Notes: generated by a model not told the origin, from the letters alone. 64,000 nt of DNA from a virus (IMGVR_UViG_3300010373_000047:273-64272), one strand, 5' to 3'; shown: positions 3,402 to 51,145, numbered from the stretch's first letter. Program-made: numbers and translations.

Positions 3402-4043
3402 TTATTCGTCGTCGGGCGGATAATACACTAGGGAACAACGACAATTCGGGTGCGCGGGCGGTGCGTGGTCGCCTGAAGTGAAATCGTCGCCGATATCAAT
3501 CGGCCCCTCGTCTGCGTTTTCAGGACATTCGTCGCATTCGGCTTCGTCGCCAGCGTCAAACCACGATTTTGATTGCACGCCGGATGCTTTTGCGCCCTCG
3601 AGCTGTCCGCGATTGTGGGCGAGACTGATCTCGGTGCGCGATATTACAAGCGCACGTTTAACGCCAAACACGTCGTCCATGATTGCCGTGCGCAATTCGT
3701 GAACGCTCGAGCCGGATTCGATAGCTTCGGCGAGCTTGCCTCGAACCATGTTGCGCGTTGTCTCGGTGATGGCAAATTCGGGGTTTGGGTTAGGTACGAC
3801 AGTACCGTCCGACATTACGCGCATCCCGACAAGCTCCGCTCCGCGCCGCTGGGCATAATCCTTGCCAAACACGTCGACGACGTCGAATGCGTCGTCGCTT
3901 GCGCCAAGCGCGGCCACCACCTGCTTGCCTGCCGCTGTGGCTGCCCCGCCAAGCACAAACGCGATATCGTCAAGCAGGTCGCTCCAATCGATATCGAGCG
4001 ATCCTGCTATCCGATCCGCTTCGTGTTGCGGGTTAATTGGCAA
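3402..4043 (-). CDS. Head morphogenesis / minor head protein (MuF, SPP1 gp7-like), C-terminal part
   Basis: RALVISRTE, KSW, CDEC, PPAHPNCRC motifs; probable TTG start at 4043 after GAGG (ORF track start 4100). Confidence 0.85.
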   Translation of the reverse strand: MPINPQHEADRIAGSLDIDWSDLLDDIAFVLGGAATAAGKQVVAALGASDDAFDVVDVFGKDYAQRRGAELVGMRVMSDGTVVPNPNPEFAITETTRNMVRGKLAEAIESGSSVHELRTAIMDDVFGVKRALVISRTEISLAHNRGQLEGAKASGVQSKSWFDAGDEAECDECPENADEGPIDIGDDFTSGDHAPPAHPNCRCSLVYYPPDDE

Positions 4044-5088
4044 TCTGAACCTCGGAGCCTGTATGGGCGTGCCAGACGTTGTTGCAATCGTAAGAATCAA
4101 CCGCTAACGACGCGACGCCATCGATTTGATGTGCCGCCCCTGTCGTGTCGACCTGCCACGACGGATTGCTGCCGCCCTGGCAGGTGTTTTCGACACCGCC
4201 GTTGTACGTCGGCTGACCGTTCAGCGTCAGACACAGATAACAATAGCTCGCATCGTTTGGCGGCTGGGTTGTTACTGTGATCGTACCCGTTACCGTCGAG
4301 CCCATGATAGGCGACGTAACGGCAAACTGGGTCAATCGGGCGCTCGTCTCGTCAGATTGGACGGTCGCGATATACGCCACCGCGCCGCTATCATACCAGC
4401 CGCCTGAATACCAATCGCCCATACACCCCCAGAACATTTGGTCGGTGGTGCCATTAGGGTACGTCGGATACCCAGGCGAGGTCGCCCCTGCCATATATCC
4501 GATGTCGCCAGCCATGCAAGCCTTGAGATAAGCCAGCCGGAAATCGACGTTAAATGCTGTCGAGGACCAATCCATCGGGCTGGTGTTGAAACTGGTGCGA
4601 CGCACCTGCATTAAACCGTAACTGTTCCAACAAAACCCATACGTCGACACCCAGCCGTTCCAATCGCCCGCAGCGCATTGCCCTGCGGTGAACTCGATAT
4701 CGCCTAGCTGGTGGGCGTTCTGTCCTGATTCCGCGACGCCCTCAGCGCGAATGGCGTTGAGGTATGCGGTTAGACCCCATTTTGCTGTGGCCCATTGAAT
4801 GATCGCATCCGTCGAGCCTCGATAATTGCCGGTAACGCCCGCGAAGTCTGCGGGAGGCGGTCCGCCAGCGAAATTCATCGGCGCTGCCAAGAACGACGCG
4901 AGCTGTGACGACGTCGGCACAGTATGGTTTGGAAGGTAATTTTCTGGGTGGCTTTCTGGCGAACCAGAAACCGGCACAACCGCGTTCGCCGCCTGGGCGT
5001 CTGTTAATACCGGACTTGATGTAGCGCCCGCCACACCGCACCACGTCGCTACCGATAGCGCGAGAAAAAGAATCACTAAACGTCGCAT
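4033..5088 (-). CDS. Exported protein with lysozyme-like/lytic transglycosylase-like domain and C-terminal Ig-like domain
   Basis: Signal peptide MRRLVILFLALSVATWCGVAGA; IIQWATAKWG, AEGVAES, SYGLMQV, STAFNVD motifs (ES and GLMQ as in SLT enzymes). Confidence 0.6.
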   Translation of the reverse strand: MRRLVILFLALSVATWCGVAGATSSPVLTDAQAANAVVPVSGSPESHPENYLPNHTVPTSSQLASFLAAPMNFAGGPPPADFAGVTGNYRGSTDAIIQWATAKWGLTAYLNAIRAEGVAESGQNAHQLGDIEFTAGQCAAGDWNGWVSTYGFCWNSYGLMQVRRTSFNTSPMDWSSTAFNVDFRLAYLKACMAGDIGYMAGATSPGYPTYPNGTTDQMFWGCMGDWYSGGWYDSGAVAYIATVQSDETSARLTQFAVTSPIMGSTVTGTITVTTQPPNDASYCYLCLTLNGQPTYNGGVENTCQGGSNPSWQVDTTGAAHQIDGVASLAVDSYDCNNVWHAHTGSEVQIAN

Positions 5089-5105
5089 ACCCCTTGCTCC
5101 CCTTT

Positions 5106-5330
5106 TTAATCGGCGTGCATTTTTGCAAGCCGTTTTACGCTCTTTGAACGGTCCAGCACCACTACCTTATGGAGTGCCCGATGCTTGGCGCACGGATAGC
5201 GCACACCAGGCATCAACCAGCACGCCTGAGACGTTCCAGCGCCAAACAGTCGCGCCGGTAGTTGACGTGGCTGGCACGGCATCGACGTACCGCAATCAGG
5301 ACAAGCGTGCACGTGCCCAGGCGCTGGCAT
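5106..5330 (-). CDS. Small Cys/His-rich hypothetical protein
   Basis: HVHACPDCG...C...CAKH; TAATG-coupled to the upstream gene. Confidence 0.45.
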   Translation of the reverse strand: MPAPGHVHACPDCGTSMPCQPRQLPARLFGAGTSQACWLMPGVRYPCAKHRALHKVVVLDRSKSVKRLAKMHAD

Positions 5331-6430
5331 TACATGATCGGATTGCCGGACGCCATTCGGAGATGAACCCCGACAAGCTCCGCGCTATCCGCTCCGTTGC
5401 TGCCGACGGCCGAACCTTTTTTGAAAATGACTCCGTTTGTCGCAGGAGACGCTGTTATTGAAACCGCCACCCCTCCAGGACACGATGGCCCAGTTCCGAT
5501 TCCGGTGCAGCACGCTGCTGCGCCATACCACGATGTGCCCGATCCGGTACAGGTGTTGGCGGCAACGCACCACGTTTGCCAAGGCGCATACACGTCATTA
5601 CTGCTGGTGGCTGTGTCGACAAGTCCTGGGCTTTGTATGACAACTGGGCTCGCCGGTATGGCCGCGCTATTCCAGCCGTGCCCGTCTGTGTGTGGGGTGC
5701 CGGTGGCGTTTTCGGTTAACGATATCAATAGCGTTGACGGAACCGTTGTGTAGGTGAACGCGAGCGAGCCTTCGTCAATTTTTAGGAACGCGTTGCCAAC
5801 GCCTGGGTCGTATGGATAACACCCCATTGAGCCGTTTGCCAACGTGCCGGTATTGCCAGCAGCAATCGTGACGTCGCCGCTAGGAATGAGGCGCATGTAG
5901 TTATCTAACGGGTCGAAGCTTTTGGCGACTATTTTCCAGTCGCCCACGCCATCCGACCACACACATCGGGTCATTCCCTTGGGCGCAGCAACAGCCGATC
6001 CTCCCGCCGTTCCGCCACCCATCCAAAGTCCGTGCGTCGAGCCTTCTATAGTATCGGTGCCAGGGCTCGCGTTAACTACGACCTTGAACGGAGGTAAATT
6101 GGAATCGTATCGCTTAAAGCAAATAAGGTGGTGCGAATCGGTTGAATTGGTCGGTAGGACTGCGGTAAACAGAGCGCCCGAAGTATTGTTCACGATCAAC
6201 AGCGAATCCGTGTTTAGTACCGTATAACTCGATCCGCTCGTCCCGATAGTCGTGCCTGACCAATGCGCCCCGATAACGGTAGGCGCAGACGAACCCGCGA
6301 CGCTCAATAGATCGCCGCTAAACGCTGGAATGTTGAACGGGTTGCCCTGCGAGCTGTCCATCAAACCGCCCGCATAAACGGGCGCAGCCAACAGCAACAG
6401 CGTCGCGATGATTGCGCGTATTATTTTCAT
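5330..6430 (-). CDS. Exported protein with tail-fibre-like beta domain
   Basis: Signal peptide MKIIRAIIATLLLLAAPVYA; YTVLNTDSLLIVNNTSG..AVLP..FKRYD..VVVNAS..DTIEG resembles a common phage fibre motif. Confidence 0.55.
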   Translation of the reverse strand: MKIIRAIIATLLLLAAPVYAGGLMDSSQGNPFNIPAFSGDLLSVAGSSAPTVIGAHWSGTTIGTSGSSYTVLNTDSLLIVNNTSGALFTAVLPTNSTDSHHLICFKRYDSNLPPFKVVVNASPGTDTIEGSTHGLWMGGGTAGGSAVAAPKGMTRCVWSDGVGDWKIVAKSFDPLDNYMRLIPSGDVTIAAGNTGTLANGSMGCYPYDPGVGNAFLKIDEGSLAFTYTTVPSTLLISLTENATGTPHTDGHGWNSAAIPASPVVIQSPGLVDTATSSNDVYAPWQTWCVAANTCTGSGTSWYGAAACCTGIGTGPSCPGGVAVSITASPATNGVIFKKGSAVGSNGADSAELVGVHLRMASGNPIM

Positions 6431-6822
6431 TAACGTGGATACTCCAGGCAGTTAGCCGTCGAGCCGCTCGCCGAATAACAGTAAACCGCACCCGTAGTTG
6501 GGAACGATGCAACCGATCCGGCATGGTTGCCGGTAGCGTCAGCCGCCAGCACCTGGCCTTGCGTTGCGCCGACGTTCGCGTCGCCGCACGCTATCGGGTT
6601 CGCTCCGGTATTCTGGACGCTGACTCCGTATCGATGGTTGGCGTTCGCAGGGCAAACCTGGATCGGGGTCGTGCTTACCGTAGTCCATGCGTGCGACAAC
6701 GGAGACGCGCCCGACACCGCGATAGGGGTGCCATAATCATCAGCACGCACCGATCCGGTTTTGACTACTAATAGACACAACCCGAACGCTAGCGCGATGG
6801 AGCCGGTTTTAACGCCCAGCAT
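6430..6822 (-). CDS. Small exported protein resembling phage structural proteins
   Basis: Probable start ATG 6822 (RBS AAAGGA); signal-like MLGVKTGSIALAFGLCLLVVKTGSVRA; NxxRxxxxVQNTG..I..G...G..L...GAVY pattern. Confidence 0.5.
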   Translation of the reverse strand: MLGVKTGSIALAFGLCLLVVKTGSVRADDYGTPIAVSGASPLSHAWTTVSTTPIQVCPANANHRYGVSVQNTGANPIACGDANVGATQGQVLAADATGNHAGSVASFPTTGAVYCYSASGSTANCLEYPR

Positions 6823-6918
6823 CGGACGATCCTTTTTTCGGCTGAAGCTTTTGTACGTGCTCATATTCTTTAATGACCTGTTCGCAGATTTTCTCGCCTT
6901 GAGCCTTAAGAAACCGTT

Positions 6919-8580
6919 TTAATATCTGAGCCAGTTTGCGCTCGGCTTGACGGCTGGCCTTAAGTTTTTCGGGTCCACCGAAATGAACGGCTCGCTTGAC
7001 TTTTTTTTTACGTCAGGGCCGTCGAGCTTTTTGGTTTTCGTCGCCGGTTTGGGAATCGGAGTTTTCATTTCCCGATCATGGATCTCACTCGCGCGCTGGT
7101 TTTCGTCGTCGGACTGCGACATCTGCTGGTCGTGACTTTCTTGGGTCCGCTGCTCGTTGTTCGCAGCGAACTGTACCTGCTGCGAGGCCATCGCCACCGC
7201 GTCCTCAAGCTTGGTTGCGCCCGACGCCGTGATGATAACCAGCTCGTCAGCAACGCCACCCTTGGGCGGCTGTCCGATTTTCGACCGCCCCTCGTCTGGA
7301 GTCATTAGCCCTTTGGAAACATAGCCCGTTACGGTCTGCATTTCCTTGAGCTGGTCGAGCTGTTCTTCCTGGGTAAAGACAAACTCGATGTCCGTCCATC
7401 CGAAATGCTCCTGGATGATCGGGTCCATGATTTCGTCTTTGAACCACGCCATGAGCGGCAGGAGGCCTTCTGCGAGCGCCGTTTCTTGCGCCGTTTCGGC
7501 CGTCCCACGGTTCATCATTTTGACGAATGCGCTGGGCGGAATGCTGAACGCAAAACAGAGGATACGAGCGATCCATTCGTCGTAATCGTTCTTTAGGTTC
7601 GGCCCCTTGATCTCGAACGGCTTGGAATCACCAGGGAGAAACCGCACTTTGCTTTTGAGCGCGGTATTGCCCTGCAGTAAAAAATCGAACGTCGCCTGAA
7701 ACTCTGCCGTTTGCGACGGGGTCCATTCTTTCGGCACCGTAACGATCAGGTCCGGAATCGTGCCTTGCGTCCAATAATCGAGCTGGTATAGCTCCCGACG
7801 GATGCCCTGCATGATCTCGAGATACACCTGCTCGACGGGCGAGTATCCGTATGGGCGGTGATCGGGACGCAGGTTCATCGGAGCGTAAATGATTTCGTCT
7901 GCCGTCAAATCGACAATCTGCAACCCTTTAATGATCTGTTGGTATGCCGGAGACGGAGGCTCGGGTCGACGGCCGAAATCATCGATCTTGGGCGTGATGG
8001 TCGCACCATCGATTACGCTGATAGCGTATGGAATGCCCGCCTGGGACGGCTGGATGTACAGCGTAGCAGCATCGCAAACAAACAAATCGTCGAACAGCAA
8101 ACGACACCACGCGTGCCACCTGGTTTGGCGATCCGGCTTCTTGAAAAACTGCTTAAGGTAAACGATGCGCGGATCGACTGGGGTCGTGTCAAACTTGCCG
8201 CGAGGCTTGCCGAGAATCTGAATATCCCACGGAATACGGGTGAGCTGATCTTTGCGGGTTTGAATCAGGGTGCGCAGCAACCCGAAACTGTTTGCCATAC
8301 CGCGAAGCTGCGCAAACGATATCGGCTCGAACTGTCGCGGCCCATAGTTGATGTTGTAGCCGCTGATGTAATCATACCAGCGAGGCTGGGTGACATTCGG
8401 CGGTCCGTACGGCTGAATCGGCTGCTGGGGCGAGAAGAAGTTTTTCGGATCAAGCTCTTTTATGGCATTTTGCGCCTGGGTGCGGTTTATCGGATCGTCA
8501 ACTCGAGGGTTGATACCCTTAACCGTTCCGCCCTGCTGTCGCGCCATCGCCGCTGGGTTCGGATTGTTCTTGCTGGCCAT
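6919..8580 (-). CDS. Portal protein
   Basis: ISFAQLR, DGATI, YGYSPVEQ, DEWIARILCFAFSIPP, NRGTAE motifs; 553 aa. Confidence 0.9.
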   Translation of the reverse strand: MASKNNPNPAAMARQQGGTVKGINPRVDDPINRTQAQNAIKELDPKNFFSPQQPIQPYGPPNVTQPRWYDYISGYNINYGPRQFEPISFAQLRGMANSFGLLRTLIQTRKDQLTRIPWDIQILGKPRGKFDTTPVDPRIVYLKQFFKKPDRQTRWHAWCRLLFDDLFVCDAATLYIQPSQAGIPYAISVIDGATITPKIDDFGRRPEPPSPAYQQIIKGLQIVDLTADEIIYAPMNLRPDHRPYGYSPVEQVYLEIMQGIRRELYQLDYWTQGTIPDLIVTVPKEWTPSQTAEFQATFDFLLQGNTALKSKVRFLPGDSKPFEIKGPNLKNDYDEWIARILCFAFSIPPSAFVKMMNRGTAETAQETALAEGLLPLMAWFKDEIMDPIIQEHFGWTDIEFVFTQEEQLDQLKEMQTVTGYVSKGLMTPDEGRSKIGQPPKGGVADELVIITASGATKLEDAVAMASQQVQFAANNEQRTQESHDQQMSQSDDENQRASEIHDREMKTPIPKPATKTKKLDGPDVKKKSSEPFISVDPKNLRPAVKPSANWLRY

Positions 8581-12257: not shown

Positions 12258-12396
12258 TGCCCGTGCCTCCGTGCGCCCGAATTTTTTTGTTTTGTGGCGC
12301 ACGGAGGAGCATTGCATTACCGATGCCAATCGTCAATATGGATAATTTTGGCGTATCTTGGATGAGATTACATCAATTAGCGCCGCGTTGCGCTAC

Positions 12397-12747
12397 TTAT
12401 TCGTCCGCCCAACCCTGCCCAGGGCGGTAAACCTTGCGCGGTTCTTTGCTCTGCTGCTCGATAACTTTTGCACTTTCGTCAGTTGTGTTAGCAGCAGGTA
12501 CAAACAGCTCGACGTGTCCGTCTGGGTGGATAAAGCGCGTCGTGCTGTCAACGCGCACCCCAGGCGTTTTCATCTTCTCGAAAAACGCGCGACCGGTCGC
12601 GGGCGCGATGTTGTTGATTGTCCGGATCGTAATCGTTCCGTCAGGCGCTTCGCTGTATGCGGTCATCGAAAACATCTTGAACCGTCGGTTCAGCATTTGC
12701 CCCGCGAGTTCAATCGCGCCATCGTTTTTAAGCTGCTTGCTGCCCAC
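12397..12747 (-). CDS. Hypothetical protein
   Basis: 116-aa ORF in operon-like chain. Confidence 0.45.
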   Translation of the reverse strand: MGSKQLKNDGAIELAGQMLNRRFKMFSMTAYSEAPDGTITIRTINNIAPATGRAFFEKMKTPGVRVDSTTRFIHPDGHVELFVPAANTTDESAKVIEQQSKEPRKVYRPGQGWADE

Positions 12748-13141
12748 TTGCCACCTCGTATATTTTCGTGAGCCCGTTTAGGCGCGTCGTTAAACGACCA
12801 TCGCGCTCAAGTTTCCGACATACCACTTTGACGTGTTGCGGATTTCGGTTGATGGCTTGCGCCACCCATCGGCTCGACGCGCCGCCTCGCCTAGATAGGA
12901 ACTCGACGGCCATCCGTTCGACGGTTTGCAAATGTGGGGCGGATTCAAGCCGTCCAATCAAGCCATCAACCCTGCGTATCTCCTCGACGAGCGCGCGCCG
13001 ATATGCGTAAACCTCGGCGTGCTCTAGGCGTTTGCGCGCCATCCACGCCCGTTTGTACTCGCGCTGGCATGGTGTGCAATGATAGCGGGCGAGTCCGTGT
13101 ACGCACGGTTTGACGCGACCCATTAGATACGCCACCACCAC
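12728..13141 (-). CDS. Putative Zn-finger + winged-HTH protein
   Basis: CVHG...CTPC, then SSRWVAQAINRNPQHVKVVCRKLERDG. Confidence 0.5.
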   Translation of the reverse strand: MVVAYLMGRVKPCVHGLARYHCTPCQREYKRAWMARKRLEHAEVYAYRRALVEEIRRVDGLIGRLESAPHLQTVERMAVEFLSRRGGASSRWVAQAINRNPQHVKVVCRKLERDGRLTTRLNGLTKIYEVASGQQAA

Positions 13142-13455
13142 ACGTCAGGCTTGGGTCCGTTGTAAGTACAGTCTGGACACACCACACCGACAATAGCGCT
13201 ACGCGCCCTTAGCGTCATGTGGTGCGTGTCAAGAATACCGTAGCTCGGCTCATGTTGACGAATCAGCGTCCACTCGAACGTTTCGCCGCCACCGCCATTC
13301 CACGGAGTTCTACGGGTGCATCGCGAGCAGTTTTGTATGGCGCTAACGGTACGCTCCTCTAAGGTAAAAAATCTTTGCGTCGCGCGACGCACGGATGCCG
13401 CGATATCGCCGCGAATGCCTTCGTCGAAGGCTTGATCTAGCGTATAACCCGCCAT
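13123..13455 (-). CDS. Hypothetical Zn-ribbon protein
   Basis: CSRC and CPDC motifs; probable start MAGYTLDQ. Confidence 0.4.
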   Translation of the reverse strand: MAGYTLDQAFDEGIRGDIAASVRRATQRFFTLEERTVSAIQNCSRCTRRTPWNGGGGETFEWTLIRQHEPSYGILDTHHMTLRARSAIVGVVCPDCTYNGPKPDVWWWRI

Positions 13456-13459
13456 TGGA

Positions 13460-13726
13460 TCAGCCAACGTTCGCACATACCCCAAAGCGCTCTTTGTGTG
13501 AGCGCTTTCGCGTATGAGCAACGCGCGCCGATGCCGCAACCACCGCCCGCCGCCGCTGCGCCTTGTACCCCTTACGGGTCGACTTCGATCCGTGGTTGGT
13601 CGTCCAGTTAGACCGGTGCGGGTTGATGCGTCGGTGCCCCTGGACGGTAAACGGATTATTCCGCTCTGATAAAAACGCCCGCGCGATTATGCTTTCGATT
13701 GCCGGATCGATGTTGGTAAACGTCAC
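13460..13726 (-). CDS. Hypothetical basic protein
   Basis: GTGA overlap with the ligase stop. Confidence 0.35.
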   Translation of the reverse strand: MTFTNIDPAIESIIARAFLSERNNPFTVQGHRRINPHRSNWTTNHGSKSTRKGYKAQRRRAVVAASARVAHTRKRSHKERFGVCANVG

Positions 13727-14643
13727 TTGTCGCTCCCGTTAAACTGTTGCTCGAGTAGTCTCTCCTTGTACCATTCCGGCAGCCCGCGCGTCAAAAGTCG
13801 CTGGATTTGAGGCCAAGCCCACGCGAACAGCTTGTCGCGGATTTCAGCCTCGCATTCCGCGCGCACGTCAACCGGCACAGATTTCATCAGTGCTCCGATA
13901 TCGCGAGGCGAGTTGTCGAGCGTGCCGTCCTCGGCGAGGCGCTGAACGGCTTTCGCCCAGCGTGCGGGCGTGCGAAGCTGTTCGCCCAGCATCGTGACGA
14001 TATCCTGCGCGCCAGGATTGCGGGTTTTCCACTCTCCGGCGTGCGTCTCCTTGAATAACTCTGAGACAAACTTTCCCATAAGCACGTGACCGTCGATGCC
14101 GAAGCGCCGATAGTTCTTCAGCACGACGCCTTCGATTTTCTGTCCGCCGAGTACTGATTCGCGCTCGAGGTATTCGCGCACGTCGGCAACGCCGAGACGA
14201 TCCACCTTGTAGCACGGCACGCATTCGATTCCGATGCGCCCCGCTTCGTCAAGTTTGGCCTCGGGCGATAAATAAGACTCGATGCCATCGTTGATGTCGA
14301 ACAGCATCAAATAATTGAGCGGCACGCGCTTGTAACACAGCGTGTTGTGTTTGGGTTTGGCCAGATACTCGGCGCGATAAACCCACCCAGGCGTCAGACG
14401 TTCGGCGATGGCGCGAACCGTATCGCACGCTTCGGCAAACATCTTCGGCGGTGCGTCAATCGGAAACGTAGCGTTGTGCGAACGCACCAGCAGCGGCCCG
14501 AGCGGATGGTCGGGAAATAACCCGAACGAAAACTGGGAGCCGTCGATTTTTTCTTCGACGACGACCGGATCGTCAAGCAAATGCTCGAGCGCCCGATGCC
14601 CGAGCGCGTATATCTTGCCGTAGCTATTCAGCGAGTCCATCAC
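13723..14643 (-). CDS. RNA ligase family protein (Rnl2-like adenylyltransferase domain)
   Basis: EEKIDGSQFSF (motif I), YRAEYL, LFDI, EGVVLK, MGKFVSELFKE. Confidence 0.75.
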   Translation of the reverse strand: MMDSLNSYGKIYALGHRALEHLLDDPVVVEEKIDGSQFSFGLFPDHPLGPLLVRSHNATFPIDAPPKMFAEACDTVRAIAERLTPGWVYRAEYLAKPKHNTLCYKRVPLNYLMLFDINDGIESYLSPEAKLDEAGRIGIECVPCYKVDRLGVADVREYLERESVLGGQKIEGVVLKNYRRFGIDGHVLMGKFVSELFKETHAGEWKTRNPGAQDIVTMLGEQLRTPARWAKAVQRLAEDGTLDNSPRDIGALMKSVPVDVRAECEAEIRDKLFAWAWPQIQRLLTRGLPEWYKERLLEQQFNGSDK

Positions 14644-15107
14644 CCACCCTCGTTCTTTGATTCCTCGAATGCGCGCTGGAACGCCCGCAGATCTGCTGCA
14701 TACGCCCCGTAGCGCCTAATAATAGACTCGAACTCCTCGACGTCGTGTCGAACGAGGCGCAGTCTAACCAAGTCGGAATCTGGGTCGCGTTTTGGCTCTC
14801 CGGTTTCCTCGTTTACCACTACGCCAACATGCGCCAGCTCGTGATCGAGCACCGCAACCTGGAACGTTTTGTCGCCGCGCTTTTCCAGCTCGCCCCACAA
14901 ATCCTTGGCCAGCGTAATGACGAAATCGAATCCGTGGAGGGTGCGATCCTGGTCGCCAACTTTGCGGCACGTACCGCATTTTCCAGGCATCTCGTCCTTA
15001 AACATATAGGCGATCCGCAGAGCGTTGTCGCGGATTACCGGATAGTGATCGTCGATCAGCCCTTGCGCCATATCGGCCAGCATTTGTGATTGCTCAAATA
15101 GTGCCAT
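14640..15107 (-). CDS. Putative phage metallopeptidase
   Basis: DFVITL..W, LDHELAH, RHDVEEF..IIRRYG. Confidence 0.75.
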   Translation of the reverse strand: MALFEQSQMLADMAQGLIDDHYPVIRDNALRIAYMFKDEMPGKCGTCRKVGDQDRTLHGFDFVITLAKDLWGELEKRGDKTFQVAVLDHELAHVGVVVNEETGEPKRDPDSDLVRLRLVRHDVEEFESIIRRYGAYAADLRAFQRAFEESKNEGG

Positions 15108-15125
15108 GTCGTGATTATCCGGTTG

Positions 15126-15329
15126 TTACGACAAATTGTCAAAAATTGGCCTGGTGTGAATTGCCGCGATTACAGCTTCGCGCCTCGTACGTCCGCGCGC
15201 CAGCTCTTTGTATTTGTGAGGCTCGAGGCTAGAACCGTCAAACACGATCCATTCGCGCCCATGCCGCTCGGCAAACCAACGACGTATTCGCAGCTCTGCT
15301 ATGATGCCGCTTGGTGACGTGTCTATCAA
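15126..15329 (-). CDS. Hypothetical protein
   Basis: 67-aa ORF in operon chain. Confidence 0.35.
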   Translation of the reverse strand: MIDTSPSGIIAELRIRRWFAERHGREWIVFDGSSLEPHKYKELARGRTRREAVIAAIHTRPIFDNLS

Positions 15330-16235: not shown

Positions 16236-16258
16236 TTGTAACTACCTCCTGTCCAACA

Positions 16259-16288
16259 GGATTAACCTAACGGTCGGTTAAATGTCAA
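16259..16288 (-). promoter_or_regulatory. Promoter with degenerate operator AACCGACCGTTAGGTT
   Basis: TTGACA, operator in the spacer, RBS AGGAGG before 16235. Confidence 0.6.
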
Positions 16289-17437: not shown

Positions 17438-17577
17438 TTACCACCTTAAAACCGCATTTGCGGCACTCGAGAGTGAGGGATTCGGCGTGCTGTCCTGTGT
17501 GTCCCCTAACGCCTTGTGGGCAATATGGCAAATGGTAGCGTTTGAAAGCTTCGATGCAGTCCGTGCGACTCATATAC

Positions 17578-24802: not shown

Positions 24803-24833
24803 AGCCGGATCGAAAAAAATTCTCGATCCGGCT
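24798..24833 (-). terminator. Rho-independent terminator
   Basis: AGCCGGATCGA...TCGATCCGGCT plus T run; same arms at 34607-34638. Confidence 0.75.
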
Positions 24834-24841: not shown

Positions 24842-25849
24842 TTACGGATGTGCTGCGTGTAGCATCGCAAGCGCCGTCTGGTTGGTCGACGACAAGATGT
24901 CCGGCTCATACACCTCGGCCCATTGCAGTTCGGGTTCCTGTGCCGCCAGATTTGCCGCCTGTGGGAACGCCGAACCGAGGGTGCCTACCTCTTGCCATAC
25001 CGTTACGGGGCGATTGTTGTCGTCCCACGTCAAACCCCACTTTTGGTTCCAGCCGTTGTTCTGAATGTTGCAATGAATTACGAGACTCTCGCAATCGGCC
25101 GTGAGGTCGTCCTCGGTTGCGCCCCAGGTTTCGTTGACGACGGGCGAATCGTTAGGAAATCCGAACGGAACGATCATGAGGTCGGTCGCGATATTCGGAA
25201 AGTCGTACTGGTAGCGTCGCGCCAGCGTATCGAACGCGCCGCGCACGAGCGGCTCTGTGTAGCCATCAGCAACCCAGTCTGCCGTGTCGTCCATCGAGAA
25301 ACATTCTCCGTTGTTGATTGACGTTCCGGCGACAGATCGAGGCAACAGCGTTTCATCGGTCGATGCGCCGATGCCGTCGAGCTTGACAGCATACAGGCTC
25401 GGATCGCTACCGAATTGCGCCGCCATCGCGTCGATAAAATCGCGATACTTGCGCAGATACACGTGGTCCCACGGTACGGGCGCTTTGGCCGTCGAACAGA
25501 TCGGCATACCCCACGTTTGGTTCCACACCCACGTAAACGATTGTGCTCCATCCTGGTAAACCCATTGCGGAGCAGACCATGCCGCGCTCGAGTCCAGTTC
25601 GTATAGCTTGCCAGCCGCCTTCAGCTTGGCGATCTCGGCCTGCACGCCCGACCAATCGTATTGCCCCTCGAGGGTCTCTACGGTGCCCATACGCACCTTA
25701 ATCAATCCGCCGTCGACGTTCGGGTTGGCGAGCGCCGTGGCTGATAATCCGTTCGGACTGGTTGGATAGTCCCAGATCATAATCGCGTGCGCGGGCGCTG
25801 CAGCTAACAAACAGGCGAGCAAAGCTACCGTTAGTATCTTCATATACAA
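24842..25849 (-). CDS. Exported glycoside hydrolase-like protein (clan GH-A TIM barrel, GH42/GH35-like)
   Basis: Signal peptide MKILTVALLACLLAAAPAHA; VET.EGQYDWS, APQWV, PVPWD..YL, TDETLLP. Confidence 0.65.
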   Translation of the reverse strand: MYMKILTVALLACLLAAAPAHAIMIWDYPTSPNGLSATALANPNVDGGLIKVRMGTVETLEGQYDWSGVQAEIAKLKAAGKLYELDSSAAWSAPQWVYQDGAQSFTWVWNQTWGMPICSTAKAPVPWDHVYLRKYRDFIDAMAAQFGSDPSLYAVKLDGIGASTDETLLPRSVAGTSINNGECFSMDDTADWVADGYTEPLVRGAFDTLARRYQYDFPNIATDLMIVPFGFPNDSPVVNETWGATEDDLTADCESLVIHCNIQNNGWNQKWGLTWDDNNRPVTVWQEVGTLGSAFPQAANLAAQEPELQWAEVYEPDILSSTNQTALAMLHAAHP

Positions 25850-26291
25850 TCACCCCTCGTGGTTGCTTCGAGGGGTGATTGTATCAATCGCGATGCCCGT
25901 TGATTAGGCTGGCGCTTGCGGGTGTCTCGCGCTGTGCGCGCTCGGTGTTATCGCCACAGGAGTCAGTAATACGTTTGTATATGACAAACTCGCTTGGGTC
26001 TAGTGGGTTATGGTAGTATCCGCGCTCTGTTTCGCGCTCGATGTAGTATACCCTCGGACGAAACTCGTTGCGCGTGTCGATGTGGATGATTTTCGCGCCA
26101 TCCGGCAGATCGATGCCAATCGCGAGTTGGTCAGGATCAAGCACCCTGCTTTTAAGTCTCATTCTTGCTCCTGCTCGGCTTTGCGCATTTGTTCGCGCAA
26201 CCATTGCTTTGCCTTTCGGTATCGATAGAACGCACCCCAAGGCAACGCGACCAGAAACCCCGCGACGCCAACCCCTAGCACAACGGCAACG

Positions 26292-39883: not shown

Positions 39884-41079
39884 AACGGAATCTCCTCGGT
39901 CGGTTCGGTTTTCGGTGCTTCTAAACCCCACGCAACCCACCCCGCCCGCGCCCGTCGAGCAAATAGCTCGATCTTCGGCACGTCCGGATACATACGCTCG
40001 AGAATGTCGTATATCTCGTCGGGCTTGCGCGAATGCTCGCGTCGTGGCGCATTCACCACGGATGATACCCGATTCTCGGGCAGTGGGGTAATAGGAGCGC
40101 CTCGCGAACCCACAAGTAAAACCTCGTGCTGTGCGCGAAAATAGTATCCTGGCCCGATGCTGGGCTTGACCCAAATCGCTTGCGAGCGGTACGAAAATCC
40201 CCAACGGTTCAGGATGCCAATCGCCTCCTCGACCTTCGCGGGCGGGCACCACAGGAACAGCATCGCGTCCTCGGTTAGAACGTTCTTGACTGGCAGCGCC
40301 CCGATGGCGTCGAGGGTCATCGTCGGATACTGATTTTCGACGTCTCGCGAATCCGATACAGGATGTTCGTATTGCCACGGCGGATCGGCGAGCACAAGCG
40401 CGAATTTCGCGCCCTGAAACTCCATCGTCGGGGTGCCTTCGTCAATCAGCTTGCCGATGCGCTTACGGAACCGCGCTGCATCAGCCGCCCGACGAATTTC
40501 CTTGGTGTTGCCTGCCGCCACCGTCGCCTGTTCGGGTTGCGGCAAATCAAGCAGGTGGTAGGCTTGCCCGACCTTGCACTTACCAGATTCGATTGCCGCC
40601 ACCAGCGCCGGATCGCCATCGCGGAGAACAGCCGCCGCCTGGTCGACTGTTGCGCGACCGACGGCGAAATCGTCGGCTGCTTGTTTACTGAGTCGCCCAA
40701 CGACTTTTTTCGGTAACGCCTCGCCGTTCGGCCCCGCGATCTCCTGGGCATAAAACGGCTTGGCTCGCGCCGCCGCGAGCGCTCGTTGCGATTCGTTCAG
40801 GTGGCGTCGGTAGAAGTTGACGCTCAGCACGAAATCTACAAGCGATCCGTTGCCGTCCCAAAACCGAACCGGCACGGGTTCGATGCCGAGCTCTTGCGCC
40901 GCGCGATAGCGGTGTCGGCCGTCGATGATTTGGTCGTTGTATAGCCAAATCGGCTCGCGGATTCCATGATCTTTGATGTCGCGCTTAAGCTCTTGGAAGT
41001 CCGCCTCCGGCATCACAGGAAGGATGCCGGTAACTGGGTGGCACTCGAAAGGCACCTGTCGTGGTTCGATTGTGATCAT
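39880..41079 (-). CDS. ParB-like N-terminal domain fused to MT-A70 family adenine methyltransferase
   Basis: LKRDIK.HGIREPI...IIDGRHRYRA; N.YRRHLNESQRA; LADPPW, LFLW, WVK, HEVLLVGSRG, HSRKP, ELFAR. Confidence 0.9.
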   Translation of the reverse strand: MITIEPRQVPFECHPVTGILPVMPEADFQELKRDIKDHGIREPIWLYNDQIIDGRHRYRAAQELGIEPVPVRFWDGNGSLVDFVLSVNFYRRHLNESQRALAAARAKPFYAQEIAGPNGEALPKKVVGRLSKQAADDFAVGRATVDQAAAVLRDGDPALVAAIESGKCKVGQAYHLLDLPQPEQATVAAGNTKEIRRAADAARFRKRIGKLIDEGTPTMEFQGAKFALVLADPPWQYEHPVSDSRDVENQYPTMTLDAIGALPVKNVLTEDAMLFLWCPPAKVEEAIGILNRWGFSYRSQAIWVKPSIGPGYYFRAQHEVLLVGSRGAPITPLPENRVSSVVNAPRREHSRKPDEIYDILERMYPDVPKIELFARRARAGWVAWGLEAPKTEPTEEIPF

Positions 41080-45585: not shown

Positions 45586-46332
45586 ATGAATAGTATGTAT
45601 ATAGGCGGTCCGAACAGTGTATATATAGCTGGTCCGATGACAGGCTACCCCGAGTTTAATTTTCCGGCGTTCGACCGCGCCGCAGCACTTGGACGTTCTA
45701 TAGGCTGGGAAGTGGTCTCGCCAGCCGAACAAGACCGTGTTGAAAACGGTTTCGACCCCACAGGGCTATCTGGTGATCCGAAAGAGCTCGACGGCAAATG
45801 GGACATAATGAAAGCCGCCGCTTGGGATATCAAGATGGTCATGGAATGCGCCGCTATCGCCATGCTGCCTGGGTGGGAGAAGAGCAAGGGCGCGACGGCC
45901 GAACATGGGGTGGCGAAGTGGCTCGGCAAAAAAATCCTCGACGCCACCACATTCCTGCCGCTAGACGAAGCGCCGACCGCCCTGGGCGAAGCGTCGGCTA
46001 TGCGTAATTTCGGAACCGGTGCGACGCGCAACAACGACGCGACGCTACCCGATTACGAGGGGTTCGTATCGCCGCTCGCTCTGCGTGCGTTTGGCGAATA
46101 TATGCACAAGCACCGCTTCCAGGCTGATGGAACCGTGCGCGCCAGCGACAACTGGCAGAAAGGCATCCCGCTCGAATCTTACATCAAGTCGGGCTTTCGA
46201 CATTTCATGGACTGGTGGCTGTTTCATCGAGGCCAGACCGGTCGCGAAACCTTGGTCGATGCTCTATGTGCGTTGATGTTTAACGTGCAGGGGTACCTAC
46301 ACGAAATCCTTAAAAAGGAGCAAGAATCGTGA
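45586..46332 (+). CDS. DUF4406 (nucleoside deoxyribosyltransferase-like) fused to dATP/dGTP diphosphohydrolase-like domain
   Basis: YIAGPMTGYPEFNFPAF, LPGWEKSKGA.AE; then F.TGATR, NWQKGIP, RH. Confidence 0.75.
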   Translation: MNSMYIGGPNSVYIAGPMTGYPEFNFPAFDRAAALGRSIGWEVVSPAEQDRVENGFDPTGLSGDPKELDGKWDIMKAAAWDIKMVMECAAIAMLPGWEKSKGATAEHGVAKWLGKKILDATTFLPLDEAPTALGEASAMRNFGTGATRNNDATLPDYEGFVSPLALRAFGEYMHKHRFQADGTVRASDNWQKGIPLESYIKSGFRHFMDWWLFHRGQTGRETLVDALCALMFNVQGYLHEILKKEQES

Positions 46333-46718
46333 TCGTTGAGTTGGTTCAGCTCGTCGCCAATTACTGGTACATTCCGGTGATTGCGTTCTTGGCGCTCGCG
46401 CTGCGTATTTCTCGCCTGCAGGTCGCCGCAAACGCAGGCAAGGTGGCGACGGCGAACGCAGAAATCCGCCAGCAAAATGCTAATTTTGCGTCGCTACAGG
46501 ACAAAGCCGACGAGCAATCCAAACAGGTAGAGGCTTTGAACGTCGAGCTCCAACAGCGATCTAAGATGCTCGCCGATGCGAGCGAAAAGCTGCGCGCCGC
46601 TCGGTCGCGAGACCACGGCACAGCCGTCGCGATGGTTCGCGGAGCGGATCGTAACAAATCATGCACCCAGGCGATGGAGGATGCGGTGTCTTATTACCGC
46701 ACGCATAACCACCAATGA
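46329..46718 (+). CDS. Inner-membrane spanin (Rz-like)
   Basis: N-terminal TM, coiled coil, C-terminal Cys. Confidence 0.65.
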   Translation: MIVELVQLVANYWYIPVIAFLALALRISRLQVAANAGKVATANAEIRQQNANFASLQDKADEQSKQVEALNVELQQRSKMLADASEKLRAARSRDHGTAVAMVRGADRNKSCTQAMEDAVSYYRTHNHQ

Positions 46719-47068
46719 GCTATTTCCCACACGATCCAAAACGCGAATTTCGCCTCACGGTGTTGGGTACGATGTTGTTGCTCGCGAGCATGTTCGCGAT
46801 TGCCGCGCTAGGCGGGTGCGTAGCTCGTGTCGAGCCCGACACTACATGCCAAAGCGTTGTGGTTAAAGTTCCGGTCGCTACGTGTCCTGTGCCGCCCGTT
46901 CTGACGCCTCCACACGAATTTGTTTATGATCTTGACGGCAGCGCGTCGCCGGATGAAATCGAAAAAGCACAAGAGGCGACGATTCTCGAGTTAGAATCGT
47001 CGCTAGGTGAATGCTCGGGGTACCTCGACGCCTATCGCTCTATTCCGTCGCCGGTGCCAACTCCGTAA
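46715..47068 (+). CDS. Outer-membrane spanin lipoprotein (Rz1-like)
   Basis: Hydrophobic stretch then lipobox LGGC; Pro-rich VKVPVATCPVPP. Confidence 0.65.
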   Translation: MSYFPHDPKREFRLTVLGTMLLLASMFAIAALGGCVARVEPDTTCQSVVVKVPVATCPVPPVLTPPHEFVYDLDGSASPDEIEKAQEATILELESSLGECSGYLDAYRSIPSPVPTP

Positions 47069-47636
47069 CGTCTGCCAGCTTCTTGCTATACGCTCGTAGC
47101 CGTTCGGCCCGCGCCAGCCACCCTTCAAGAAATCGCCCCTGGTCGGGGTGTTCGACCGCCACGCGCTGGTGGTGTCCGATTCGGAGATCGATATAGTTAT
47201 CGATTGTCGGCCCACATCCGGCCCTGTGTAGCGCCGCAAACAAAGCAGGCGATACTTGATGCGAGACCGGCAAATTGACAGCTAGACGCGCCCACGCGAT
47301 GGCGTATCCTGGCCCGCACAGTATCGCCGTGTCGCCGATTGCAACCGCATACCACGGGTCCATGACGCCGCACGAACAGGCATCAAAGTATTGCGTCTTG
47401 TAGATATCGCGAACCTCGTCAAGCGTAATGAGCCGGACGGCTTGGCTTGGGAGGTTGTGTCGGTATCTGTACGCCGTATATACGACTTGCGTGACGCCGC
47501 CCGATGTTGCGCCTCCGCGATCATGCGGATCGTTGACGTAACCACCCTCTTCTCTGAAGGTGAAGTCGAAAAACAAGTCGAAATTACTTTTTGACGAGGG
47601 TTTCGCGGAGGTCGTTAATGTCGGATCGGATATCAT
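47040..47636 (-). CDS. Endolysin, glycoside hydrolase family 108
   Basis: EGGYVNDPHDRGGAT..GVTQ, IYKTQY, FLEGWLAR. Confidence 0.9.
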   Translation of the reverse strand: MISDPTLTTSAKPSSKSNFDLFFDFTFREEGGYVNDPHDRGGATSGGVTQVVYTAYRYRHNLPSQAVRLITLDEVRDIYKTQYFDACSCGVMDPWYAVAIGDTAILCGPGYAIAWARLAVNLPVSHQVSPALFAALHRAGCGPTIDNYIDLRIGHHQRVAVEHPDQGRFLEGWLARAERLRAYSKKLADVTELAPATE

Positions 47637-47910
47637 GTACCGCTCCTGCAAACTCGGAGCGGATCGCGGTATGGAACCGCTCGTCGGATTCGCGATGCTG
47701 TTGTAAATCGCTGCGCAGCAAGCCGATCAGCTCTTTGTGGTGGGTATCCATGCCGGTAATTTCCGATGAGGTTTTTGCCTCGAGCGCCTGTAACGCCGAT
47801 TTGTCCGCCTTGCTGCGAACGACCGCAACAATCGCTCCGACTAACGCCGACGCCAAAATGCTGACGGTTGCGATTAGCGCCGCGTCGAGCCCTGTCGTAC
47901 CGGCAAACAT
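47584..47910 (-). CDS. Membrane protein (holin/antiholin candidate)
   Basis: One TM plus coiled coil, immediately upstream of endolysin. Confidence 0.5.
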   Translation of the reverse strand: MFAGTTGLDAALIATVSILASALVGAIVAVVRSKADKSALQALEAKTSSEITGMDTHHKELIGLLRSDLQQHRESDERFHTAIRSEFAGAVHDIRSDINDLRETLVKK

Positions 47911-49409: not shown

Positions 49410-49420
49410 TCGGATGCTCC

Positions 49421-51145
49421 TTACCGATACGATTGCCACTCGACCAGAGCGGCGGTGCCGACTGGCACGCTATCGATATTATTAGCAGGCGCCTCGACTG
49501 TGAATGTGTTGCCCGCCGCACGCGCCTGTAGTGAAACTGTACACGATCCGGTAGCCGCGAACGGGTTAGCACCACCGCCATAACTCAACATCATGTCCGG
49601 AAAGTGCTCTTGACGGAAACGGTCGCCAACGGTCGGCCCAAGTGCTGAATAATAAGCCGGATCGAGACCGTGGGGGTCGGTGTTGCTGCTTGGACATGTA
49701 GCCAACAACTGAAAATCAATAGCCGTTGGATACGCGCCGGTCTGGAACAACATGTCGAGTGTGCCGCCCTTGAGCTTAAAGGCGCTATTCGATCCGCCAG
49801 GATTTGCGCCCAACGGTCCGATAGTACATGAGGCAATTGTGGTCCATGCGCCACCTGTTCCGGTAGCAGCTACCACAACATTGCCCGACGGAATTGCTTT
49901 GCACGCGCCCCAATTCGCGCCGCTTGAGCGCGGGGTGCGCATATCGACAGTGGCGTTACCAGCAGCGGCAATCGTTTGTGTTACGCACCCCAGAATCGGC
50001 TGCGAAGTAACGGTTGCGAGCGCAATGAGCGCCGCGCCATTAGTACACGAAATGCCGGTATCGTGCGCGCTGCCGTCAACGGTTGTTGAATTGATGAAAG
50101 CGTGTCCGCTTGTAGTCGCGCCATCAAACGCCAACGTACACGAACCAGTATAAACCAAGTCTGCGACGAGCTGGCTCGATCCATTGGTGCCGACGCCCGA
50201 TACGCATCCGCTTGCGCCAATATCGGTGTGTAGGTTTTTCGTCACGGTGGCGCTCATCGGTCCAAACCCAAAGACAAGTTTCCCCAGGTTGTTCACCACG
50301 GGCGCTGTCGCATTTTGCAACAAAATATCCTGGGAGGGGTTGCCCGCTGTGGCGCTTGCCGAGCTCGATGCGCCAGCCGCAGGATACCAACCCGTGCCGC
50401 TATACCATACACCACACGGCGTCGATCCGCCGCCTGCCGTTATCTGTGTTCCTGCCGTACATGATGGCGCATCTGTTATCGAGCACAGCGTTCCCGCACT
50501 TGGCGACGCTGGGAGCGCAGCAAACGTACTCGCCGCGCCGCACGCCGTGCCGCCCGAAGAAACCGGTAGCGGGTTCGTAAGCGCGAGATTAGAAAAACCG
50601 ACGGACGTACCCTGAATGGCATAATTCAACGGCACCGACGGCTTGTACGCGAAATTAAAAATCGACGCTTGGCTCGCGACGCGCTCCCATTGATAGACGT
50701 CGCACGCCCCGCCACCAATAGGCCCCGATCCGGTTGATAGCCCAGGGAGCGAGCTGGTTGCCTGTGCGATTGGATTGTCTCCGTCGTCGTCAGCCCAGGC
50801 CACAGTGTACGCATTAGCGCCGGTTTGACACGCGACGATAAACGGCTGTTCTCCGTCACCCATGTTGTGCAGATGTAGCGTGGTGTTGGCCTGTACGCTC
50901 ACGAAGAAATTAGGCGTCGAGCCGTTGCCGCCGTTCAGTGTGGTCGAGGCGGTGGTAGCGTTGACAACCGTAAATGGTCCGCCGCCGGAGCCGCCACTAG
51001 ATATAGCGTTGATGCACGCTTGGACTTGAGCGAGGCTTGCCGCTCCGGTCAGCTTGGCGTCTAGCGTGCACGACGCCTCGGCTCGCGCCGCAACACACAC
51101 CGCCAATAGCGTCGCCGCAATGATCGTTTTGCGCATCCAATCCAT
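49421..51145 (-). CDS. Exported, Cys-rich tail-fibre-like protein
   Basis: Signal peptide MRKTIIAATLLAVCVAARAEA; LPVSSGGT, TFAALP..GTLCSITDA..GGGS..VWYSGTGW, FDGATTSG motifs; occupies the tail-fibre position. Confidence 0.6.
   Translation of the reverse strand: MDWMRKTIIAATLLAVCVAARAEASCTLDAKLTGAASLAQVQACINAISSGGSGGGPFTVVNATTASTTLNGGNGSTPNFFVSVQANTTLHLHNMGDGEQPFIVACQTGANAYTVAWADDDGDNPIAQATSSLPGLSTGSGPIGGGACDVYQWERVASQASIFNFAYKPSVPLNYAIQGTSVGFSNLALTNPLPVSSGGTACGAASTFAALPASPSAGTLCSITDAPSCTAGTQITAGGGSTPCGVWYSGTGWYPAAGASSSASATAGNPSQDILLQNATAPVVNNLGKLVFGFGPMSATVTKNLHTDIGASGCVSGVGTNGSSQLVADLVYTGSCTLAFDGATTSGHAFINSTTVDGSAHDTGISCTNGAALIALATVTSQPILGCVTQTIAAAGNATVDMRTPRSSGANWGACKAIPSGNVVVAATGTGGAWTTIASCTIGPLGANPGGSNSAFKLKGGTLDMLFQTGAYPTAIDFQLLATCPSSNTDPHGLDPAYYSALGPTVGDRFRQEHFPDMMLSYGGGANPFAATGSCTVSLQARAAGNTFTVEAPANNIDSVPVGTAALVEWQSYR

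Follow-up and report, generated by a model that had tools for sequence, protein, structure and literature searches.

Why would a tailed phage keep genes for exported proteins within the operons that build its virion? The question is raised by IMGVR_UViG_3300010373_000047:273-64272, a 64,000-nucleotide stretch of viral DNA (here termed the window), which contains six open reading frames (ORFs), P0001 to P0006, whose products begin like Sec-exported proteins. A first-pass annotation had considered these proteins possible virion appendages that mature in the periplasm, and named as an alternative a surface-remodelling kit secreted late in infection. The anatomy it described holds: five of the six genes lie inside late structural operons, three products are glycan-enzyme-like (P0001, P0004 and P0005), and three carry phage fibre-type sequence (P0002, P0003 and P0006). 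Of the two explanations, the secreted kit fits better than loading onto virions. We put at about even the chances that the six are late-expressed, Sec-exported, disulfide-bonded and soluble non-virion factors, which act on a Wzy-type surface polysaccharide of the host. Coordinates are collected in Table 1.

Export signals and translation starts

All six ORFs were confirmed as open frames on the minus strand, and each start has a plausible ribosome-binding site or Shine-Dalgarno (SD) sequence and exposes a hydrophobic N-terminus. Signal peptides were scored with a crude, home-made heuristic for the n-, h- and c-regions and an AxA motif; a Sec signal was taken to need a positive n-region, a hydrophobic core 7-15 residues long without charges, and small residues at -3/-1. 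In a scan of 492 six-frame ORFs of at least 50 amino acids (aa), all six N-termini show these features and score 4.87-5.56. The only other ORF of at least 100 aa to reach 4.8 is 21596-22003 (4.84, with a weak 8-residue core); two spurious-looking short ORFs (55 and 58 aa) score 5.67 and 5.04, and the lipobox protein next to the spanin gene scores 4.73. The same scan flags none of the 61 annotated coding sequences (CDS) of Polewnik, which together with Strzyga represents the nearest cultured phages (both from Brevundimonas; portal identity 41%); in 80 loci from related viruses it flags 19 of 967 ORFs. In the window approximately 6 of 68 ORFs are flagged (Fisher p=0.004), and given the lower rates elsewhere the window is enriched for predicted exported ORFs. 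The six N-termini thus look like Sec-type signal peptides; those predicted for P0001 and P0002 read MRRLVILFLALSVATWCGVAGA and MKIIRAIIATLLLLAAPVYA, respectively. Tat export of P0001, whose N-terminus starts with MRR, was considered and rejected, as the peptide is 22 residues long and strongly hydrophobic.

Two details of the first-pass annotation had to be corrected. The TAATG overlap in the tail operon exists but joins the gene for the DUF2460 distal tail protein to P0006, rather than the two tail-slot genes P0006 and P0005 to each other; these are separated by 11 nucleotides (nt), and the P0006 stop codon sits within the SD of P0005. Likewise, the ORF delimited as 24842..25849 is real, but 25849 is a TTG two codons upstream of ATG 25843, the start of P0004. 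The P0006 frame remains open for 61 codons further upstream (51145-51328), across the end of the DUF2460 gene. A start at 51328 and a frameshift fusion to DUF2460 were both rejected; the extension is unlikely to be coding, since the DUF2460 C-terminus is conserved with Polewnik and matches TIGR02217.

Cysteine pairing

The predicted mature regions of P0001 to P0006 contain exactly 8, 8, 4, 4, 6 and 16 cysteines, the even numbers counted at first pass. These cysteines behave as pairs, which are conserved, gained or lost together. In an alignment of 37 P0001-family sequences, C138 and C153 are both present in 32 and both absent in 5 members, C191 and C222 are both present in 35 and both replaced in 2, and the four C-terminal cysteines occur together in all seven members with that domain. 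A further pair, found in 30 and 33 of the 37 members, is replaced by alanine at both sites in P0001. P0004 and P0005 have two aligned cysteines in common, each with private extras.

The same tendency is seen in relatives. Across 86 related loci (L084-L165 plus L171-L174), 22 of 26 export-flagged ORFs have an even number of mature cysteines, compared to 521 of 1006 unflagged ORFs (Fisher p=0.001), the flag being crude and the flagged set containing a few probably spurious ORFs. The link between cysteine parity and the export flag is what one expects for folding in an oxidising compartment. The predicted export and oxidative folding of the six proteins are therefore well supported, albeit indirectly.

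P0001, a member of a bacterial polysaccharide-cluster family

P0001 has 191 relatives at E<=0.001 among 3146 candidates, with a best identity of 51%, and a search for its pattern in bacterial genomes (one per species) yielded at least 533 confirmed relatives among the 599 matches listed. The 79 bacterial loci examined lie on contigs of up to 4.3 Mb and are mostly labelled Candidatus Binataceae, delta proteobacterium or proteobacterium metagenome-assembled genomes, or Ktedonobacteraceae. In these loci no other match to an ORF of the phage was found near the P0001 homolog, except an Ig-like 100-aa stretch of the megatron (the host-specificity protein of the tail) in L018. There, megatron residues 753-848 resemble L018 7311-7610 (33% over 100 aa), immediately upstream of the P0001 homolog; the likeness probably reflects a shared Ig-like domain. 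With one representative annotated per neighbour cluster, the genes most often found within 4 kb of the homologs in the 79 loci encode Wzy_C proteins, which are O-antigen-ligase-like (16 loci), glycosyltransferases GT4 (13) and GT2 (5), as well as Poly_export/SLBB (Wza-like) proteins (5), and one P0001 relative has a precomputed Wzy_C match alongside its P0001-like region. Given this polysaccharide-cluster neighbourhood in soil bacteria, P0001 is a putative host-derived periplasmic glycanase of Wzy-type clusters.

Within the 37-member family E120 and G158 are invariant, S121 and S156 are at least 90% conserved, and P0001 carries the invariant Glu120 and a SYG motif in its lysozyme/SLT-like domain. 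This agrees with the SLT/GH23 pattern, in which a catalytic Glu-Ser is followed downstream by an S-Y-G-x-x-Q type motif. P0001 itself has no match to Pfam SLT (PF01464) at the curated cut-off, and a family profile retrieved no lysozyme from the PDB. Matches of family members to Pfam SLT (7 of 37, best E=6.5e-5), Glucosaminidase (2 of 37) and Big_7 (13 of 37) point to a divergent lysozyme-like family, often with Ig domains. Like P0001, 19 of the 37 members start with a signal peptide or anchor according to the scan, and more do so by eye. A tblastn search of P0001 against 50,697 phage records gave no match.

A role of P0001 as an endolysin or peptidoglycan lysin was rejected: the phage has a signal-peptide-less endolysin, holin-like ORFs and spanins, and with this complete set P0001 is not needed for lysis.

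P0004 and P0005, GH42-like paralogs

P0004 and P0005 are 28% identical over 215 aa (E=3e-15) and appear to be TIM-barrel paralogs of the GH42-like type. P0004 did not match PF02449 (GH42), a word-indexed homolog search with P0005 returned only the protein itself, and PDB sequence searches with either protein gave nothing meaningful. In the ESM Atlas, P0005 reaches a feature score of 0.96 and TM values of 0.69-0.75 to bacterial clusters of approximately 370 aa (pTM of the Atlas model 0.76). These clusters come from Acidobacteriota, Planctomycetota and others; GH42 is assigned to 43-64% of their members, some of which end in a type IX secretion system (T9SS) sorting tail, and one Atlas row reaches the service's bar for the GH42 name.

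The P0005 gene is followed 3' by holin-like ORFs and then the endolysin gene. P0004 is located in the replication region, outside the virion operons, and alone among the six genes has the look of an independent unit. An intrinsic terminator with a 14-bp stem and a U run lies directly 3' of the gene. On its 5' side, a hairpin of 16 perfectly paired bp (-27.5 kcal/mol, z = -8.9) stops 2 nt short of the ATG and holds the P0004 SD in its 3' arm. This hairpin may gate translation of P0004, or may end the upstream gene without a U-tract.

P0002, P0003 and P0006, proteins of phage type

P0002 contains one fibre-repeat-like stretch and a domain of approximately 90 aa (YTVLNTD...LP...DTIEG). HMMER searches of 1.84 billion representative sequences gave only six non-self matches, one of them a full-length relative (43% identity) and the rest sharing the ~90-aa domain, the consensus of which is YTVLSTD...LP.A...G...KK.D....G.DTIDG...W. 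The domain closes a 654-aa fibre-repeat protein that has no signal peptide, and in IMG/VR it ends fibre-like ORFs of two viral contigs from outside the portal-search results, L081 (6451-11841, 1501 aa) and L082 (4397-10273, 1958 aa). P0002 residues ~60-135 match the C-termini of these three proteins. Both ORFs of 1501 and 1958 aa begin with signal-peptide-like segments, and the one in L081 is flanked by two small signal-peptide ORFs, next to a glucosaminidase-like gene. Among the nine other proteins that share the domain, five have signal-peptide-like starts (seven by eye). Exported fibre-like proteins may be widespread in uncultivated phages. Two further matches are leads only: the best PDB hit of the domain profile is the T4 baseplate protein gp10 (E=0.057), and one domain member weakly matches T4_gp9_10_N. 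Among the representative sequences, a 99-aa fragment matches the cysteine-rich tail of P0002.

P0002 and P0006 are similar to each other over residues 180-256 and 416-497, respectively (31% identity, pairwise E=3e-5). For P0006, a word-indexed homolog search returned only itself, a PDB sequence search nothing meaningful, and the ESM Atlas weak, all-viral leads (score 0.82, TM by row 0.67-0.71). A domain shared with fibre proteins can therefore be assigned to P0002, and P0006 is a candidate by virtue of its 80-aa match to P0002 and the Atlas leads. Neither protein was matched by tblastn in the 50,697 phage records or confirmed in single-protein scans of IMG/VR. Searches of Pfam, PHROGs and NCBIfam with all six window proteins yielded only a sub-threshold GH42 match.

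P0003, a small partner-like protein, is 36% identical over 73 aa (pairwise E=1e-4) to a 125-aa signal-peptide ORF at the same position in L157, which is succeeded by a signal-peptide ORF of ~750 aa; in a database of 7287 ORFs the likeness has E=0.19 and is a lead only. No similarity was found between P0003 and a small ORF of L081. The remaining ORF of the head cassette, orf74, encodes a CPDCG zinc-knuckle-like motif and no signal peptide, and its ATG overlaps the P0002 stop (TAATG). Its coding status is uncertain, as its GC content at third codon positions (GC3) of 0.57 is below that of its neighbours.

Insertion sites in the head operon

In Polewnik the portal and MuF domains form a single 774-aa gene, directly followed by the protease gene. 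In the window portal and MuF are separate, and P0003, P0002, orf74 and P0001 lie between them, TAATG-coupled end to end; the MuF start overlaps the P0001 end by 11 nt. We compared this region with a portal-clade set comprising the best 80 of 266 IMG/VR relatives, in which genes were called as greedy ORF picks. None of the 80 loci contains a relative of any of the six proteins.

The position itself recurs as a site of cargo. Of the loci, 70 have both portal and protease genes; in most of them portal and MuF are neighbours, and in 19 at least 2 kb of varied cargo separates portal from protease. Signal-peptide ORFs occur between terminase and portal in five loci (L109, L124, L135, L144 and L160), while L138 and L157 have such ORFs after the portal; the one in L144 ends in a P0002-type domain, as judged by eye. 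Two loci encode Wzy_C membrane proteins, of the O-antigen ligase/polymerase-like kind, between terminase and portal (L109 7275-8603, L135 8308-9558), each adjoined by a homologous small signal-peptide ORF (~160 aa, 4 cysteines), and the small ORF is also found in L124.

Two relatives show arrangements of their own. In L157 a signal-peptide, pectate-lyase-like, repeat-domain ORF of ~750 aa runs in frame into the portal without a stop (3365-7570), and this continuity could be a fusion, read-through or a chance open frame. In L084, which at 62.7 kb and with direct terminal repeats is the complete genome closest to the window, MuF and protease are separated by ~7.7 kb of additional genes (12326-19427), the first of which appears to begin like a nucleotide-sugar epimerase, going by its N-terminus.

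An assembly chimera at the head cassette is unlikely, since each of its outer junctions is crossed by independent Logan contigs from one soil-metagenome run, with equal depth at both. No single Logan contig spans the whole cassette; the contigs break inside P0001 (4609-4801), where a 152-nt piece has a depth of 2.6, compared to ~7.5-7.9 on both sides. The break may come from branching of the assembly graph at related host genes, or from differences between strains.

The slot after the megatron

P0006 and P0005 occupy the slot after the megatron, which was surveyed in 13 relatives plus the window. In 6 of these 14 phages, including the window, a large signal-peptide ORF (at least 400 aa) lies within ~5 kb after the megatron, and two of these ORFs are pectate-lyase-like. 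L171, which has the closest megatron (41% identity), encodes a 1585-aa ORF with 26 cysteines and an SD-backed signal or anchor start, pectate-lyase-like and with K1-lyase_C, directly followed by the endolysin. In L173, three signal-peptide ORFs with 8, 6 and 6 cysteines lie in a row; L178 has a pectate-lyase-like one of 485 aa, L182 one of 545 aa with 12 cysteines and L177 one of 764 aa with 14 cysteines. Only small signal-peptide ORFs are found in the slots of L174 and L181, and none in those of L172, L175, L176, L179, L180 and L183; in Polewnik the lysis genes directly follow the megatron. According to pairwise BLAST, the exported ORFs of the slot are a mosaic of shared modules. P0002, P0003 and P0006 have no match in the 13 post-megatron regions, just as in the portal-clade loci.

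A proposed soluble kit acting on surface polysaccharide

How might such proteins serve the phage? In the reading that we favour, the six genes would be expressed late, and the Sec pathway would carry their products into the periplasm of a two-membrane soil host, where the proteins would acquire disulfide bonds. P0001 would be a host-derived glycanase of the polysaccharide-cluster type with a lysozyme-like fold, P0004 and P0005 would be bacterial-type proteins with a GH42-like glycosidase fold, and P0002 and P0006, together with the small P0003, would represent glycan-binding or adhesin modules descended from phage fibre domains. As soluble proteins apart from the virion they would act on Wzy-type polysaccharide, i.e., exopolysaccharide (EPS) or O-antigen, in the periplasm first and in the surrounding matrix after lysis. 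The progeny would probably gain release from polysaccharide, while receptor left on the dying cell or on debris would be destroyed or covered.

This reading is favoured because three of the six proteins are bacterial enzyme types, one of them from polysaccharide clusters, because the insertion sites are cargo hotspots that in relatives hold Wzy genes and the L084 block, and because P0002, P0003 and P0006 share no conserved N-terminal virion-attachment region with relatives, and conventional fibres can coexist with exported proteins.

Several observations weigh against it. The head cassette contains no promoter-like sites and its terminator-like sites are at shuffled level, as are the promoter- and terminator-like signals of the tail cassette; GC and GC3 of the cassette genes fall within the range of the core genes, and five of the genes are tightly coupled translationally inside the head and tail operons. 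P0002 and P0006 carry fibre-type sequence, the side fibres of relatives lie in the post-megatron slot, and the K1-lyase_C domain in L171 is presumably typical of virion spikes. As to the enzyme assignments, no Pfam (E<=0.1), PHROGs or NCBIfam model matched P0001, P0005 reaches 17.4 bits with PF02449 (cut-off 21) over residues 69-128 only, and no catalytic residues were identified in P0004 or P0005. Finally, Sec alone delivers proteins only to the periplasm.

Alternative explanations

Some of these points are those on which the appendage hypothesis of the first-pass annotation is built. In its present form, at least P0006 and P0002, perhaps with P0003 as an adaptor, would be exported, fold oxidatively and dock on finished particles once lysis brings the compartments together. 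The head-operon and fibre-slot positions, the TAATG coupling to DUF2460, the ~80 aa shared by P0002 and P0006, the fibre-type domain of P0002 with its weak T4 gp10 and T4_gp9_10_N matches, and the signal-peptide-like starts of fibre-like proteins in the apparently unrelated contigs L081 and L082 are all in line with docking, as are the large signal-peptide ORFs after the megatron in 6 of 14 phages, with their pectate-lyase-like and K1-lyase_C domains. A bacterial parallel is provided by the exported trimeric fibres of Bdellovibrio (PMC10769870). On the other hand, the fibre-type proteins lack an anchoring region conserved in relatives, L177 encodes an ordinary signal-peptide-less fibre alongside its large signal-peptide ORFs, and the phage already has a megatron host-specificity protein. 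Moreover, three of the six proteins are plain bacterial enzyme types, an outcome that the first-pass annotation itself had named as refuting the appendage idea: P0001 has its at least 533 relatives on bacterial chromosomes with no phage genes nearby, and the GH42-like pair resembles bacterial clusters. No precedent, i.e., no description of signal-peptide-bearing tail fibres or spikes of tailed phages, was found in full-text searches outside subscription journals and supplements. We therefore regard virion docking as unlikely, and equally doubt the broader proposition that a lineage of soil siphophages with gene transfer agent (GTA)-like tails routinely Sec-exports fibre- or depolymerase-like proteins to mature their disulfides and adds them, as appendages of head or tail, to virions at lysis.

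The fibre-derived proteins might instead bind, and not cleave, the phage's receptor glycan from the periplasm or on debris and block adsorption, resulting in receptor masking or superinfection exclusion. Other phages block receptors with lipoproteins such as T5 Llp and Cor. Receptor-binding-type domains here go together with export signals, genes of the set adjoin the host-specificity gene, related phages have Wzy_C surface-glycan genes at the same hotspots, and acquisition of Wzy by phages is reported for seroconverting phages (PMC4815439). Yet the proteins are far larger than known exclusion proteins and are accompanied by enzyme-like partners, and a role in lysogeny is unsupported, since no integrase was found among the ~46 of ~85 ORFs scanned; we judge masking improbable. 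Lysogenic conversion, in which prophage-expressed morons alter the surface polysaccharide for the benefit of the host, appears even a little less plausible. IMG/VR classes the relatives G002, G004 and G006 as proviruses, the cargo is located at hotspots, and P0004 has its own terminator and a regulatory-looking hairpin. However, the signals around the head and tail cassettes do not exceed shuffled expectation, the genes are tightly coupled to late genes, and the ~46 scanned ORFs contain neither an integrase nor a repressor. It is very improbable, lastly, that the signal peptides are not real and reflect chance hydrophobicity, mis-called starts or uncleaved membrane anchors. The prediction uses a home-made heuristic, which also flagged some spurious short ORFs; but an SD precedes each start, no Polewnik CDS was flagged, cysteine parity is strongly tied to the flag, and many P0001 relatives as well as more than half of the other P0002-domain proteins start likewise.

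The phage and its other genes

The window comes from a virus record that consists of a single contig of 64,272 bases, 64,000 of which it takes in, and the sequence is present in only one public run, labelled soil metagenome. When 24 kb of it were compared by megablast with the 50,697 phage genomes on deposit, no relative was found at the DNA level. With the portal as query, a metagenome scan yielded two loci at 45-48% identity and nothing closer, and a single-protein scan of IMG/VR none that was confirmed.

By gene content the phage is a siphophage with a GTA-like tail. Its head and packaging genes encode portal, MuF, prohead protease and terminase, accompanied by a SNF2 helicase, and its tail genes a tape-measure-sized ORF, a gp84/BR0599 hub, the g15-like megatron and the DUF2460/Rcc01695 distal tail protein; one ORF resembles the annotated endopeptidase of Polewnik. 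The replication block comprises primase, an O-like initiator, a clamp and RNA ligase, and the lysis genes a signal-peptide-less endolysin, holin-like ORFs, an Rz-like spanin and a lipobox protein. The latter two together indicate a host with two membranes.

The DUF2460 gene follows the megatron gene in the window and precedes the hub gene in Polewnik (38014-40464), and its GC3 of 0.52 is the lowest among the genes measured. Between MuF and protease lies a signal-peptide-less ORF with a glycine-rich N-terminus (2764-3315), for which no family was found; counterparts of ~110-240 aa recur across the portal clade (L084, L085, L087 and L089).

Table 1. Exported-protein genes and other features of the window
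Feature	Coordinates	Strand	Start	Remarks
MuF-like head protein	3402..4043	-	likely TTG 4043 behind GAGG	PF04233
P0001, 351 aa	4033..5088	-	ATG 5088; GGGGAG/AAGGGG upstream	predicted signal peptide, lysozyme/SLT-like domain, 4-Cys C-terminal domain
orf74, 74 aa	5106..5330	-	ATG in TAATG overlap with P0002 stop	CPDCG zinc-knuckle-like motif; no signal peptide
P0002, 366 aa	5330..6430	-	ATG 6430; TAATG overlap with stop of preceding ORF	predicted signal peptide, fibre-type domain, middle domain also present in P0006, C-terminal module rich in Cys; 8 Cys
P0003, 130 aa	6430..6822	-	ATG 6822; AAGGA upstream	predicted signal peptide; mature region ~103 aa, 4 Cys; translationally coupled to P0002
Portal protein	6919..8580	-		PF04860
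Intrinsic terminator	24803..24833	-		directly 3' of P0004; 14-bp stem, then U run
P0004, 333 aa	24842..25843	-	ATG 25843; GAGGGG upstream	predicted signal peptide, putative GH42-like TIM barrel, paralogous to P0005; 4 mature Cys
Perfect 16-bp hairpin	25846..25884	-		3' arm contains P0004 SD
Rz-like spanin	46329-46718	+		two-membrane host indicator jointly with lipobox protein
Lipobox protein	46715-47068	+		beside Rz-like spanin
Endolysin	47040..47651	-		phrog_315; no signal peptide
P0005, 386 aa	48249..49409	-	GTG 49409; TAAGGAG upstream	predicted signal peptide, GH42-like; 6 mature Cys
P0006, 574 aa	49421..51145	-	ATG 51145; TAATG overlap with DUF2460 stop	predicted signal peptide; 16 mature Cys; sequence-level orphan
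DUF2460 / Rcc01695-family distal tail protein	51145..52425	-	true start uncertain	TIGR02217 match
GTA g15-like megatron / host-specificity protein	52693..55893	-		Phage-tail_3, Rcc01698_C

Implications and comparison with known systems

The findings have consequences beyond this phage. The unnamed bacterial family of P0001 gains a testable role in Wzy-type polysaccharide clusters, and the periplasm may be a place from which soil phages manipulate the exopolysaccharide of their hosts. Annotation pipelines should not label large ORFs in the tail-fibre slot as virion proteins by default. The locus also raises the question of whether fibre-like proteins made outside the cytoplasm can join a tailed virion; if true, periplasmic maturation followed by virion loading would be an assembly route undescribed for tailed phages.

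Among known systems, the virus-encoded carbohydrate-active enzymes (CAZymes) are likewise bacterial-type glycan enzymes on phage genomes, and signal peptides are present in 5% (3261/64,678) of the prophage CAZymes in that survey (PMC13507307). In contrast, P0001, P0004 and P0005 reach no curated CAZy-type Pfam model, and here the genes lie in virion operons, side by side with those for exported proteins that are fibre-like. WceF of Pantoea stewartii is a tailspike-like EPS hydrolase that is exported, is encoded in a Wzy-type EPS cluster and trims the polymer, and it illustrates that phage-spike-like proteins can act in the periplasm or matrix (PMC7949094). WceF is bacterial, Tat-exported and a beta-helix trimer, whereas P0001 is phage-borne, Sec-type-looking and lysozyme-like; like WceF, the bacterial homologs of P0001 are encoded in Wzx/Wzy-type clusters.

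The MAT fibres of Bdellovibrio are phage-tail-fibre-like mosaics with a signal peptide at the start and variable binding tips (PMC10769870). Their genes are bacterial, whereas those of the window are on a phage, and neither their conserved anchoring domain of ~130 aa, which follows the signal peptide, nor the S74 ends that many of them have were found here. Seroconverting phages with Wzy share with the window phage genes that reportedly act, or in the window would act, on Wzy-dependent surface polysaccharide (PMC4815439); the window has no Wzy gene, and its predicted proteins are soluble and exported rather than polytopic. ORFs of Porphyromonas gingivalis phages, of unknown function, are predicted to use general secretion; these phages belong to a different group and host, and the available text describes no link to cysteine pairing or fibre domains (PMC10367356).

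Morons of the lambda lom/bor type are accessory cargo inside late operons, and as with these, the exported-protein genes of the window interrupt gene order that is continuous in relatives, between portal and MuF and between tail and lysis genes. Among the six only P0004 has a (strong) terminator, whereas the cassettes are core-like in composition, translationally coupled and without a promoter or terminator of their own, and classic morons are far smaller and fewer than these genes. That phages carry genes for exported proteins is known, but most cases concern small proteins for exclusion or lysis, or auxiliary enzymes found here and there. In the window, ~9% of the larger ORFs encode predicted exported proteins with paired cysteines that are wired into head and tail operons, and uncultivated relatives do similar at the same spots.

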